Made by a program: the position numbers and the translations under genes. Under the pieces are notes generated by a model. It did not search any database. It was not told where the DNA came from and saw only the letters and a program-made list of their open reading frames with translations. This document shows, in pieces, positions 792 to 17,230 of a stretch of DNA of 64,000 bases (the stretch's first letter is position 1; each line of letters begins with the position of its first letter). The stretch is from Chlamydiia bacterium (GTDB taxonomy: Bacteria > Chlamydiota > Chlamydiia > Chlamydiales > Rhabdochlamydiaceae): the NCBI GenBank assembly GCA_963804085.1, contig CAWDOQ010000010.1:214848-278847 (forward strand), in the 5' to 3' direction.

Positions 792-2188
792 ATGGATTAC
801 TTGCTCGGACAACTCCCACGTGTTGGGGTTAGACAGAATCAGCATCTTTTACTCTCGGTTGCAATGCAGCAGGCCTTTCGTGCGCTGCAAATGCCTGTGT
901 ATGAGCTAGAAGAGTGGCTGAAGAACGAGATCGAGCAGAATCCCGTCTTAGAATATCAGGATGAGACTGAGGACGATGAGGAGAGTCTTGTCCTCGACTC
1001 TATTGAGCCCGAGATCGATTTTGAAAAGAGCAGCTTTGAGGTGCTTGATACTCTAGATGAGGGGTTTGAGACGGCACTTTTTCCTGAAGATAAGCGATCG
1101 CCAACCGAAGTGCCTGTTCTTTACACCGACTCCCTTTTTGAACATCTGATGGCGCAAGCTAGCTTCAGCCTCTCAGCTGAGAAAAAAAGATCGCAGAGAC
1201 CCTAGTCGGCAACTTGGACCATCGCGGCTTCCTCTCGATACCTCTTTCCGTGCTCTTTGAAGAGGAGGATATTAAAAAAGCTGAGGCTGTCTTAGAGAAG
1301 ATCCAAGCTTTCGATCCGCCGGGCATTGCCGCGCAAGATCTAAAACAATCACTACTTCTTCAGCTTCGCTTAAAAGGCAAAGAGAAGAGCCTGGCCTTTC
1401 GCGTGATCGAATGCCACTTTGACGATCTGATCCACAACAGACTTCCCCAGATCCAAAAAGCAATGCCCTGCTCGCAAGAAGCACTCCAAAAAGCGATCTA
1501 CTCAGAAATCGCAGGCCTCGATCTGCATCCAGGCTCGCGCTTCTCGTTTGAGCCGGCTCAAGCCATCTCGCCCGATCTTCTGGTGCATAAAGAAAAAGAT
1601 AAGTGGATCGTCGAAGTCTCAGAAGAGAGCCTCCCTTCTTTTAGAGTCGCCCCTCTCTTTTTGGAGACCCTCACCCATCCCGACGTAGATGGGCAAGAAA
1701 AACTCTACCTGCGCCGCCAGATCGCTGCTGGCAAGTGGCTGCAGAGAATCGTCAAAAGACGCCACACAACACTAAAAGATCTCGGCGAGCTGCTAGTTAA
1801 AAAGCACGCCTCCTTCTTAAACGGCGATACAAAAGCGCTTGCTCCTCTGACCATGCAAGAGGCTGCAACCACCCTGGAGCTGCACGAGTCGACCATCGCC
1901 CGCGCAGTCGCCCACAAGTACCTCTTCTGTAGACAAGGCCTCCTCCCGCTGCGCAGCTTCTTCAGCCAGATATCCACCTCACACGCCGGTGAAGAGATCT
2001 CCTCGCAAGCCGCAAAAGAACTCCTCCTCGAACTTGTCCAAAAAGAGAACAAAAACCGCCCCCTCTCCGACGACGCCCTCGCAAAACTAATGCAGAACCG
2101 CGGCATCCCTCTCGCCCGCCGCACCATCGCCAAGTACCGCCAGGCGCTCGCCATCGCCTCCGCCTCTCAGCGCCGGCGCTGGCCCTAA
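792..2188 (+). CDS. rpoN: RNA polymerase sigma-54 factor (frameshift near 1190)
   Basis: N-terminal LQMPVYELEEWLKNEIEQNPVLE, HTH LHESTIARAVAHKY, and RpoN box ARRTIAKYR. Split across ORFs 732-1205 and 1214-2188. Confidence 0.95.
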
Positions 2189-2189
2189 C

Positions 2190-2823
2190 TTATTCGACGA
2201 GCTGCCAGAAATTGCCGGAAGCTGAGATGCGCAGTTTGTTTTCTCGAGCAAACTGTTGTACAGCAGTCACTACCGTTGGCCATGACCAATCATCGCCACA
2301 GAGGATACCGCGTCCTTTAACAAAAGGGTACCAGCGACTAAGTCTTTGTAGACAGAGTCTGTGTCGTGGCCCGCATCTATGTAGATTAGAACTGGTTTTA
2401 CATCTTTAAGTAGCCTACTGCTTCTAAGCTGCTCATGCGCACAGGCACGATTTTATGGTCAGGCCTGCATGGATCACATTGGATAAAAACTGCTGATAGA
2501 GATAAGGAAGCGCTTTATAGTAGGCGGACCCTCCCGGCTGATGTTCCACAGAACCCTTCCAGTGGTCGACTGCGTACAACTGGCCAGTTGGAGGCAGCGA
2601 ATGAGGCCATATGCCGTGTAGAGCAGCCAAGCCAACTGCCGATCTCAATGACGGTATTCACCTTGTACTTGTAAATAAGGTGCTGCAATCGTCCACCATT
2701 CATGTACCAGCCATGCCCATCAAACGGCAGCACTTGGATATCACGATAGGGTTCTGGCAACTCTGCATAGGCCGAGAGGCATAGGAGTTGTGTTAAGATC
2801 AAAAGCGGTATTTTTTCGAGCAC
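2190..2823 (-). CDS. Class I SAM-dependent methyltransferase (Methyltransf_24-like) with signal peptide; several frameshifts
   Basis: VIEIGSWLGCST, LYAVDHWKGS, LIYIDAGHD and CGDDWSWPTV occur in successive frames. N-terminus MLEKIPLLILTQLLCLSAYA. Confidence 0.8.
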
Positions 2824-2936
2824 AAAGCACCTCGTAGGTTAAGTTGAAAAACTGCAAAAAAGTATAACAGGGTAAAGAAAAACAAAAAAAGTGTATTCTT
2901 GGAGCAGATTGCATGAACATGTTGCTCAAGCGCAAT

Positions 2937-3021
2937 TTGATGCAGAGTAGAGGCATGCTGCTCGCCCGTCGCACCATTGCCAAGCCTCGCCATCGCCTCT
3001 CAGCGCCGCCGCTGGCGTTAA
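2937..3021 (+). pseudogene. Orphan diverged copy of the rpoN 3' end
   Basis: Reads LMQSRGMLLARRTIAK..LAIASQRRRWR*, against LMQNRGIPLARRTIAKYRQALAIASASQRRRWP* at 2087-2188. Two small deletions. Confidence 0.9.
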
Positions 3022-3072
3022 ATCTCTAAATCTCCTATGCTGCCTCAATATTGCACAAAACGGAGCCGTCGT

Positions 3073-15900: not shown

Positions 15901-16463
15901 TTTTTGTAGCGCCAGCAGTCGATCACATGGTCGTTTACCATACCGACTGCTTGCATGAAGGCGTAAATAATCGTAGAGCCGACAAAAGTCATCCCCCGCT
16001 TCTTCAAATCTTTTGACAGGGCATCGCTTTCGATAGATTGACAGGGAATATCTTTCAATTTCTTCCAGTGATTTTTGATCGGTTTTCCTTTGACGAAACT
16101 CCAAACATAACGATCAAAGGAACCAAACTCTTTCTGGATTTTTAGAAATACTTGCGCATTTTGACGTGCGGCGTAAATTTTTAACCGATTGCGAATGATC
16201 TCCGGATTTTTGATGAGAGCTTCCAGCTTGCTGTCACTCATCGCAGCAACTTTGGCAGGATCGAACTTATGAAACGCTTTCTGATACCCTTGACGCCTTT
16301 TTAGAATCGTCTCCCAGCTTAAACCCGCTTGTGCACCCTCTAAGATAAGCATTTCAAACAAGTGCCGATCCTCATGCACAGGAATACCCCACTCCTTATC
16401 ATGATACTCGGCATAGAACTCTTTGCCGGGAGCCCCGCCAAAACAGCGCGTTTTCTTATCCAT
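15897..16463 (-). CDS. tag: DNA-3-methyladenine glycosylase I
   Basis: YHDKEWG, LEGAQAGLSWETIL, IIRNRLKI, QAVGMVNDH..C. Confidence 0.95.
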   Translation of the reverse strand: MDKKTRCFGGAPGKEFYAEYHDKEWGIPVHEDRHLFEMLILEGAQAGLSWETILKRRQGYQKAFHKFDPAKVAAMSDSKLEALIKNPEIIRNRLKIYAARQNAQVFLKIQKEFGSFDRYVWSFVKGKPIKNHWKKLKDIPCQSIESDALSKDLKKRGMTFVGSTIIYAFMQAVGMVNDHVIDCWRYKN

Positions 16464-16537
16464 TGAAAAAAATATAGTCAAATGAGCAGTAAAACGCTAT
16501 GAGAGAAGATAAGAACAAAAGTTAAGAAGGAGATCTT

Positions 16538-17098
16538 ATGGCAGGCAAAAAAAATGAACTCATCGTCTTTTTTTATGAGCTCCCAAATGTGCATAAACAT
16601 TGGGGATGGTTTCTCGGTATGGGGCTTCTACTCATGCTTCTTGGAGCACTTGCAATCGGATACGCGAATTGGGCAACAGAGTTTACCGTCATCCTTTTGG
16701 GAGTGTTACTGACAGCAGCTGGCATATTGCAACTCATCAGTGGCTTTTATGCAGCAAAATGGACAGGGTTTTCCCTCTCTCTCCTCCTAGGACTCTTCTA
16801 TGTCATCGCAGGAGCTCTTTGCATCTTCAAACCCATGCAGAGCGCTTTAACCATCGGTTTATTAATCGCTGCACTTCTTTTAGTTGGAGGGATCTTTCGC
16901 GTGGTCTCTGCCTTGAGTTATCGCTTCGACAATTGGCAATGGGTCCTGCTCAATGGATTGATCGCTATTTTCCTCGGTAGCTTGATCCTTGCAGAGTGGC
17001 CTGCTTCCGCCATATGGGTGATCGGGCTTTTTGTTGGCATCGATCTACTATTTATGGGCTGGTACTGGGTCAGGCTGTCAATTGCTGCTAGAAAGTAG
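16538..17098 (+). CDS. HdeD/DUF308 family membrane protein
   Basis: Six TM segments; WGWFLGMG..WPASAIWVIGLFVGIDLLFMG; AGGAG RBS. Confidence 0.88.
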   Translation: MAGKKNELIVFFYELPNVHKHWGWFLGMGLLLMLLGALAIGYANWATEFTVILLGVLLTAAGILQLISGFYAAKWTGFSLSLLLGLFYVIAGALCIFKPMQSALTIGLLIAALLLVGGIFRVVSALSYRFDNWQWVLLNGLIAIFLGSLILAEWPASAIWVIGLFVGIDLLFMGWYWVRLSIAARK

Positions 17099-17119
17099 AG
17101 CGGACAAATTTGATTCTGT

Positions 17120-17230
17120 AAAAACAAGAGATTCATCTTGCCCGATGCCAAGCTCGGTAAAGCCTTCGGTTCCAACGAGAGCCTCGGCATGATGAAGCTC
17201 TTGGATGTGATCAATAAGCACCTGTCATAG
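17120..17230 (+). pseudogene. Orphan diverged copy of the topA-SWIB 3' end
   Basis: KNKRFILPDAKLGKAFGSNESLGMMKLLDVINKHLS* against KNKRLIVPDAKLAKVFGSKASLDMMKLSGVLNKHFS* (15790-15900): 25/36 aa identical, no indels. Confidence 0.93.

Follow-up and report, generated by a model that had tools for sequence, protein, structure and literature searches.

Displaced gene tails in a chlamydial genome as probable scars of recombinase-free, homology-driven integration at gene 3′ ends

Integrative islands can leave a tRNA or protein gene with its 3′ end restored. We analyzed a 64,000-nt stretch of DNA (the window; positions 214,848 to 278,847 of contig CAWDOQ010000010.1, assembly GCA_963804085.1) from a Chlamydiia bacterium of the family Rhabdochlamydiaceae, in which rpoN, encoding sigma-54, and topA, with a C-terminal SWIB domain, are each followed by other genes (the cargo) and then by a second, displaced copy of their own 3′ end (the displaced tail). 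These loci resemble 3′-end-restoring islands in having an intact target and a displaced partial copy at the far end, and differ from them in having neither an integrase nor a short identical core.

Duplications of this general kind have also been described in other settings. In Escherichia coli lacZ, duplications of 109-950 bp of homology mark the single crossover of a circular molecule (PMC3240628), and Chlamydia suis was reported to integrate whole vectors, leaving the target undisrupted and the integrants amplified (PMC10715202). In homology-facilitated illegitimate recombination (HFIR), reported during transformation of Acinetobacter, S. pneumoniae and P. stutzeri (via PMC3240628, PMC5361080 and PMC2884548), unrelated DNA enters next to a single stretch of homology in a conserved gene. 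Restriction-modification genes inserted with long target duplication are described as flanked by unique direct repeats of more than 30 bp and as carrying no mobility genes (Furuta et al. 2010, PMC2853133). Lastly, at the 3′ ends of type VI secretion system (T6SS) effector, orphan Rhs and contact-dependent inhibition genes, an incoming allele takes the 3′ end and the old one is pushed downstream; Kirchberger et al. (2017, PMC5361080) proposed an HFIR-like model for this that needs no integrase.

The first window locus lies at rpoN (732-2188, plus strand; Pfam Sigma54_AID, CBD and DBD). Its functional tail (copy A1, 2087-2188, with the stop TAA at 2186-2188) recurs on the same strand as a displaced tail (copy A1′, 2936-3020) that keeps the TAA and ends 17 nt upstream of an open reading frame (ORF) at 3037-3765. 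The two copies differ by 14 mismatches and 19 gap columns, among them one 16-nt deletion in A1′, and the pair is found at an E-value of 5e-4 by genome-wide blastn and of 1e-7 with the tail alone as the query. A1′ is also present in a relative sampled by soil run X1 and on contig C9 of the same assembly. Cargo 1 occupies the space between the copies as a minus-strand gene (2190-2838) that is broken into at least four frame pieces and whose stop at 2191-2193 lies 2 nt beyond that of rpoN. The four pieces themselves gave no Pfam match. We assigned the gene to the Methyltransf_24 type through its intact homologues, which 12 of 40 relatives carry with open frames spanning 206-256 aa; one of them, a 218-aa ORF, matches PF13578 (Methyltransf_24) at 1.4e-16. 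The rpoN frame is itself read as two ORFs, 732-1205 and 1214-2188, with a break (region 1181-1214) adjoining a run of eight A at 1181-1188, and is one uninterrupted gene in relatives.

At the second locus, topA-SWIB (13314-15900, plus strand; Pfam) is likewise called as two ORFs, 13314-15455 and 15391-15900. This fusion, described as a chlamydial trait (PMC12445093), is a single ORF in all relatives examined. The functional tail (copy A2, 15790-15900, stop TAG) and the displaced tail (copy A2′, 17120-17230, plus strand) align over 111 nt with 23 mismatches and no gaps (blastn E = 1e-18), and A2′ remains in frame and keeps its TAG but has no start codon. Of the differences, 11 are synonymous and 12 are non-synonymous, counts that on their own are suggestive of allelic divergence and not decisive by themselves. 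The nearest match of A2′ in the genome is A2. A free-standing SWIB paralogue was considered as the source of 17120-17230 and rejected, as both such genes have no nucleotide match to the tail. The cargo here consists of tag, encoding 3-methyladenine DNA glycosylase I (15897-16481, minus strand; Pfam Adenine_glyco 5.6e-82), whose stop (15897-15899) overlaps that of SWIB (15898-15900), and a gene for a DUF308/HdeD-family membrane protein (16538-17098, plus strand; Pfam DUF308), which scored 5.5e-14 against the NCBIfam HdeD family, below that model's cut-off. Alignments and Pfam searches thus confirmed the layout that the initial annotation had read from both loci, a core gene, convergent cargo abutting its stop, a diverged copy of the core gene's tail and then a glycan island.

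For the genome as a whole (2.13 Mb), all-against-all blastn was combined with a crude gene call that took the longest ORFs first, and a strict set of repeats was retained that were 50-300 bp long, less than 20 kb apart and present in exactly two copies. This yielded 59 pairs, 29 of which lie inside genes on both sides (paralogues and internal repeats). Fifteen of the 59 consist of a gene tail and a copy between genes, which in every case lies downstream in direct orientation (10 on plus-strand and 5 on minus-strand genes). The same 59 pairs contained no gene head with an intergenic copy and no tail copy lying upstream; one pair was inner-intergenic and two were inverted. The rpoN pair was missed by the copy-number filter because contig C9 duplicates the locus, and we added it as the 16th case.

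The trend was the same at the protein level. When the last and first 40 residues of 1844 ORFs were searched by tblastn and low-copy matches were counted, tails gave 19 downstream, same-strand, intergenic matches vs 2 upstream, and heads gave 2 downstream vs 0 upstream; three or four of the 19 tail cases are weak (E > 1e-3). With the palindromic-repeat query excluded, 15 of the 17 displaced-tail candidates queried have exactly two copies in the genome, and the extra matches of the rpoN tail are confined to the redundant contig C9. Two candidates were dropped: C19:335516, where what looked like a tail is a palindromic repeat of 45 nt that is present more than 100 times, and C17:65929, a member of a paralogue family. 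Further cases beyond chance, on which the proposed recurrence had hinged, were therefore found by both searches.

The same pipeline was applied to parts of two relatives from other genera, on which the contrast between lineages rests. From 800 kb of G022 we obtained 16 two-copy pairs, a single tail-intergenic pair with its copy upstream and none with a downstream copy, and from 400 kb of G013 we obtained 5 two-copy pairs, none tail-intergenic and none downstream. A comparable 799 kb of our genome (contigs C2, C19 and C12) held 19 two-copy pairs, including 8 tail-intergenic pairs, all 8 of them downstream. At the overall density of our genome about 8 downstream tail pairs would be expected in 1.2 Mb, whereas 0 were observed in the two relatives. 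This suggests that the displaced tails represent a lineage-specific burst. Loss of a repair or anti-recombination gene was considered as a cause of the enrichment and set aside, since open frames for MutS, RecJ and RecC were all found.

Divergence between the functional and displaced tails was assessed by pooling the 16 pairs, which yielded 71.5 synonymous differences over 354 sites and 58.5 non-synonymous differences over 1227 sites, a ratio of non-synonymous to synonymous divergence (dN/dS, or omega) of 0.21. If one copy had decayed neutrally after an in-situ duplication, an omega of at least 0.5 would be expected, and this value was rejected for all pairs (p = 1e-5), for pairs of at least 90% identity (dN/dS 0.22, p = 0.004) and for the older pairs (dN/dS 0.19, p = 0.002). 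The displaced copies contain only 1 premature stop in 528 codons, and 78 of 132 mismatches fall at third codon positions. Identity between copies ranges from 68 to 97%, the highest values (95-97%) being those of glmS/DUF2807, TamB, def and DUF6314, and the differences are spread along the whole length of the repeats. The proportion of synonymous differences, and with it the apparent divergence of the donors, runs from about 0.03 to about 0.4-0.5. Given the ratio of 0.21 and the near absence of premature stops, both copies appear to have evolved mostly as working gene ends in separate genomes. This argues that one tail of each pair is an imported allele and argues against an in-situ duplication of the target; the outcome of the tail-pair dN/dS check fits recombination with foreign but related DNA. 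A diversity-generating retroelement was also considered and rejected, as the substitutions are of all 12 types with no excess at adenine. No reverse transcriptase family matched the cargo ORFs, and a whole-genome search for reverse transcriptases was not made.

The borders of the repeats are sharp. Homology begins abruptly 55-230 nt ahead of the stop codon and ends between 14 nt before and 14 nt past it, and the two stop codons differ in four pairs (TamB TAA/TAG, the 145-aa ORF TAG/TAA, GatB TGA/TAA and E2 TAA/TAG). The similarity would be lost right at the stop because gene ends are packed tightly and the alleles differ in what follows: 35% of the 325 convergent gene pairs in the genome are no more than 5 nt apart or overlap. 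For the same reason we do not regard cargo that abuts a stop codon as a special trait.

No integrase, transposase, recombinase or resolvase family was matched by Pfam in any ORF of the units scanned, two in the window and 14 elsewhere, in agreement with the claim that the units are integrase-free. The recombinases that the genome does encode, three tyrosine recombinases, one large serine recombinase and two rve transposases, all lie outside the units. The search for comEC that had been proposed located it at C2:69383 as a 923-aa open frame, and RecA and DprA are also encoded. CT339, a ComEC homologue, was reported to be important for DNA uptake in C. trachomatis (PMC6686042); a role of DprA, ComEC or transformation in bringing DNA into the present organism would be consistent with this gene set.

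Taken together, the most probable reading, at roughly 60%, is that the two window loci, like about 14-17 others in the genome, record homology-driven integration without a recombinase, in which DNA of a diverged relative entered at the 3′ end of a conserved gene. Host homologous recombination through the tail is indicated because of the geometry, the lack of a recombinase, the many different targets and the allelic divergence. Incoming DNA would carry its own version of a gene's last 55-230 nt followed by different downstream genes, and host RecA-type machinery would join it to the chromosome through the gene tail. This could proceed by single crossover of a circularized fragment (Campbell-type) or by one homologous joint and one illegitimate joint inside the tail (HFIR). 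The gene would then keep one complete tail while the tail of the other allele would be stranded beyond the insert without a promoter or start, so that two alternative "downstream alleles" of one locus would end up stacked. We favor the single crossover of circularized related DNA and regard HFIR with its illegitimate joint inside the tail as an equivalent alternative. The order seen at a nested locus on contig C15 (glmS tail, 81 bp, DUF2807-tail copy, glmS-tail copy, a gene of 513 aa, DUF2807 tail) is the one predicted for one crossover of a circle bearing glmS tail, gene and DUF2807 tail. The recombination route, uptake by ComEC and DprA and the assignment of either copy to the donor are what we infer from these observations.

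The relative in soil run X1, whose contigs are 93-95% identical to the window at a depth of about 10.5, bears on the age of both loci. X1 covers 792-2919 (rpoN and cargo 1), continues with about 70 extra letters and resumes at 2937, in the rpoN-tail copy. Of these extra letters, 47 nt resemble window 3881-3927 and 23 are others; the 47-nt piece may be another stranded fragment, or its match, at 80% likeness, may be due to chance. X1 also covers 3232-11475 and 11454-15722, with 23 other letters in place of 11983-12435, and 15850-17094 (SWIB tail, tag and DUF308) within a 25-kb contig, and gives no cover of 17618-19500. Read cautiously, both window units are older than the split from the X1 relative. 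At 15376 X1 is one base shorter, a difference that would put topA back in frame. The frameshifts in rpoN and in topA (break at 15370-15391) reflect either assembly indels or the recent inactivation of two normally important genes. Runs X2-X4 gave short pieces only, from which no conclusion was drawn.

The same repeats could in principle have arisen where they stand, if 55-230 nt of the target were copied at a staggered or replicative break during insertion and the downstream copy then decayed. The layout does match the restriction-modification cases, with direct repeats of more than 30 bp and no mobility gene, and in the account of those cases most come from competent species and some repeats overlap a gene 3′ end (PMC2853133). 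Five of our pairs enclose only 123-497 bp, and the tandem units on contig C23 described below carry copies of both convergent tails, as such duplication would allow. The pooled pairs should then show an omega of at least 0.5, however, and the observed 0.21 with its rejection even among young pairs, the single premature stop and the four pairs with different stop codons make this origin improbable. A second reading takes the units for decayed integrative islands, or for cassettes moved by a site-specific recombinase acting in trans, with the repeats as attachment sites. Integrative elements commonly regenerate the 3′ end of the gene that they enter, and the three tyrosine and one large serine recombinases could act from elsewhere in the genome. 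Against this, the scanned units hold neither a recombinase nor a Pfam-detectable remnant of one, the 16 different target genes show no common motif by eye in the alignments, and the repeats are long, diverged throughout and without a short identical core, some of them in units that contain no gene at all. We therefore view attachment sites as very unlikely.

Allele-like divergence would also suit once-functional second copies of whole core genes, whether duplicates or xenologues, that have since been mostly deleted. Random deletion should spare heads and middles as well as tails, and the tally of 0 head and 1 inner vs 15 tail pairs renders this origin hard to credit. An artefact of assembling a strain mixture is the least credible of the explanations. 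It draws on the state of the assembly (24 contigs, 91% complete, 5% contaminated), on the redundancy of contigs C9, C3 and part of C7 and on the rpoN and topA frameshifts. Yet the junctions between cargo and displaced tail lie within unique sequence, pairs at 68-87% identity cannot be strain bubbles, and X1, which comes from another sample and is about 5-7% diverged, has the same rpoN tail-cargo and SWIB tail-tag-DUF308 adjacencies. Contig C9 (L015; window 1-5821) is a redundant, noisy, 95% identical copy of C10:214057-220668 with 103 gap openings and has the same rpoN tail, cargo and copy structure. Small contigs were also considered as possible alternative alleles at the event loci; C9 alone overlapped one, and with that same structure. 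Elsewhere in the assembly, contigs C3 and C1 overlap, C7 matches C19 in part and C14 appears to be a chimera.

Several points weigh against homology-driven integration from a diverged relative. None of the 40 relatives in the comparison set belongs to the same genus (G003, G005, G009, G013 and G022 are of other genera), and neither an empty site nor a donor has been seen. Classical HFIR usually deletes recipient DNA rather than duplicating it (PMC3240628). The window pairs are now 79% (topA) and about 83% ungapped (rpoN) identical, low identities for RecA to act on within about 100 nt, unless the strands crossed over further upstream in the gene. The absence of head copies is not accounted for by the mechanism alone; it may reflect selection against expressed N-terminal fragments together with longer 5′ spacers, the median spacer between divergent genes being 117 nt. 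The assembly is of the metagenome type and carries indel noise. Finally, X1 is ambiguous at locus 2: the 25-kb contig leaves the window match at about 17127, near the start of the displaced SWIB copy, and in a second contig 17103-17126 is linked through six other letters to a piece aligned to 15845-15887.

Since X1 shares tag and DUF308 but diverges at about 17127, the displaced SWIB copy and glycan island 2 downstream of it may be the newcomer, and hence the unit that moved. Homologues of tag and of the DUF308 gene are located elsewhere in most relatives, not next to each other, so these two genes need not be a net gain. In a metagenome scan the DUF308 protein found nothing, and Tag found 80 loci with a best protein identity of 78%, none of them with a convergent topA-SWIB or an adjacent DUF308 gene. 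The idea of a recurring, integrase-free route of gain through gene tails was thus largely borne out by the tblastn screen; the gain itself may have been the cassette, as that idea had it, or the downstream island. A stronger form, in which units of tail and cargo are integrase-free mobile cassettes that loop out as a circle of gene tail plus cargo, are taken up by a related cell through ComEC and DprA and are reinserted by RecA at the same gene, is a tentative proposal that we consider doubtful.

The 16 host genes, named by their Pfam matches, are obg, rpoN, topA, an FAD monooxygenase gene, a TP_methylase protein gene, tamB, glmS, a DUF2807 protein gene, a MORN protein gene, an NtrC-type activator gene, the phosphoenolpyruvate carboxykinase (PEPCK) gene, a 145-aa ORF, a DUF6314 protein gene, gatB, def and the gene for 2-oxoacid dehydrogenase E2. 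Their cargo is varied and includes a toxin-antitoxin pair, a cluster resembling those for ribosomally synthesized and post-translationally modified peptides (RiPPs), glycan genes and repair genes; no restriction-modification family was matched by Pfam among the cargo ORFs. A CopG/DUF6036 pair lies at gatB, a DUF4143 ATPase gene at the NtrC-type activator, TipAS and one ORF at tamB, a split autotransporter gene at DUF6314, and genes for a nitrile-hydratase-leader-like peptide (NHLP), an unknown ORF and a methyltransferase at the TP_methylase gene. At the MORN gene the cargo is a 7-kb LanC/DUF4135/NHLP cluster that extends up to dnaK; C19:75636-82498, between the MORN-repeat gene and the displaced tail by dnaK, holds LanC-like, DUF4135, FAD-binding and nitrile-hydratase-leader-like genes, which probably form a RiPP cluster. 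At def, about 10 kb carry 11 called ORFs. Cargo therefore ranges from none, in the five short spacers, to 11 ORFs over about 10 kb, and the cassettes of one or two genes that had been envisaged are too narrow a description.

Repeated elements adjoin or fill some of these units. The E2 and PEPCK spacers are made up of high-copy repeat elements, and high-copy segments, which make up 2.9% of the genome (e.g. C4:50869-50991 and C2:171974-172440), stand directly after the displaced tails of tamB, gatB and def. Such elements may supply break points or microhomology. The palindromic element of about 45 nt often occurs as inverted pairs among its more than 100 copies (e.g. C19:335509-335553). On contig C23, positions 39834-40685 hold three tandem units, each with tail copies of both flanking convergent genes (38905-39717, plus strand; 40802-41374, minus strand), which looks like an amplified junction unit.

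Comparison with relatives places locus 1 in extra DNA. In G013, G005 and G009, rpoN runs convergently toward a minus-strand 267-aa ORF and Gly_transf_sug genes, which are followed by dprA and topA-SWIB on the plus strand, with no more than 270-1170 bp between rpoN and the 267-aa ORF. The G003 stretch shows the same block from the 267-aa ORF to topA and held no match to rpoN. As relatives hold just 270-1170 bp there, positions 2189-8031 are extra in this lineage, and the displaced rpoN tail lies within them, ahead of a glycan module (3037-8002, plus strand) whose Pfam-annotated genes comprise a 242-aa ORF, an ABC-2 permease, an ABC ATPase, a GT1-like glycosyltransferase (GT) and two methyltransferases. 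Four relatives from other genera do not have this module at the same position. The block that follows, with the 267-aa ORF and three Gly_transf_sug paralogues (8032-11938, minus strand), dprA (12378-13298, plus strand; Pfam DNA_processg_A 2.7e-69) and topA, is kept across four genera of the family. The Gly_transf_sug paralogues (8754-11938) give weak Pfam matches to the TcdA/TcdB catalytic glycosyltransferase domain. Upstream of dprA, a repeat of about 190 bp at 12020-12211 recurs across the genome in at least 10 copies (77-86% identity), some of them read on both strands.

Beyond A2′, glycan island 2 (17310-33866, 16.5 kb) encodes DegT, GNAT, GT2, ManC, GDP-mannose dehydratase, methyltransferase, GT1 and GT90 proteins (Pfam) and is bordered on the right by uvrB (33881-35872, minus strand). 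The initial annotation had further held that such events created the island hotspot. Glycan genes (Wzy_C, GT9, GT90 and sulfotransferase) already stand downstream of topA in most relatives, which are of other genera, and this part of the claim does not hold. Further along the window, a hemB (ALAD) ORF at 39172-39780 matches only profile positions 136-315 of 317, and the gene seems to be 5′-truncated or frameshifted.

Among the described systems, Campbell-type insertion-duplication corresponds to our loci in its direct homology copies flanking the insert, its intact target and its lack of a dedicated recombinase, and the C23 tandem units are a possible counterpart of the amplification seen in C. 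suis. It differs in that we describe natural events at 16-19 chromosomal genes with homology of 55-230 nt, always at the 3′ end, whose copies differ like the alleles of diverged lineages and for which no circular intermediate was seen. HFIR shares the single anchor in a conserved gene and the presence of competence genes; its laboratory products usually delete recipient DNA, whereas here the anchor piece is duplicated and the illegitimate joint must lie inside the tail. Compared with the long target duplications as described in PMC2853133, our units gave no Pfam match to a restriction-modification family in their cargo ORFs, and their repeats are not near-identical, are biased toward synonymous differences and have their right end at the stop codon. 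The T6SS and Rhs loci, as presented in PMC5361080, combine polymorphic toxin and immunity genes and are subject to diversifying selection, while hosts here are housekeeping genes (obg, glmS, gatB, def, topA, rpoN, E2 and PEPCK) and the stranded piece has no evident function. The involvement of many housekeeping genes in one genome, repeats that end at the stop and copies that always lie downstream set these loci apart from the known systems, as do a varied cargo without a detected restriction-modification family and a measurable allelic signature. Our search of the literature on chlamydiae with illegitimate recombination or long target duplication, found no such report among the titles and abstracts listed, which does not prove that none exists.

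There is still debate over how chlamydiae and their relatives in the environment acquire genes while living inside cells, and the share of homology-assisted, recombinase-free insertion in natural genomes has so far been hard to show. The roughly sixteen to nineteen probable scars, each with a piece of a second allele, make the event rate, donor divergence and cargo measurable, and the screen itself, a gene tail plus a downstream copy followed by dN/dS, is simple enough for any assembly. If the units were indeed mobile cassettes, the conserved 3′ ends of genes would act as universal sites of attachment, and each stranded tail would be a fossil of a donor allele that could be dated. Such cassettes would then be a main route by which accessory genes spread and islands grow in a chlamydial lineage of the environment.

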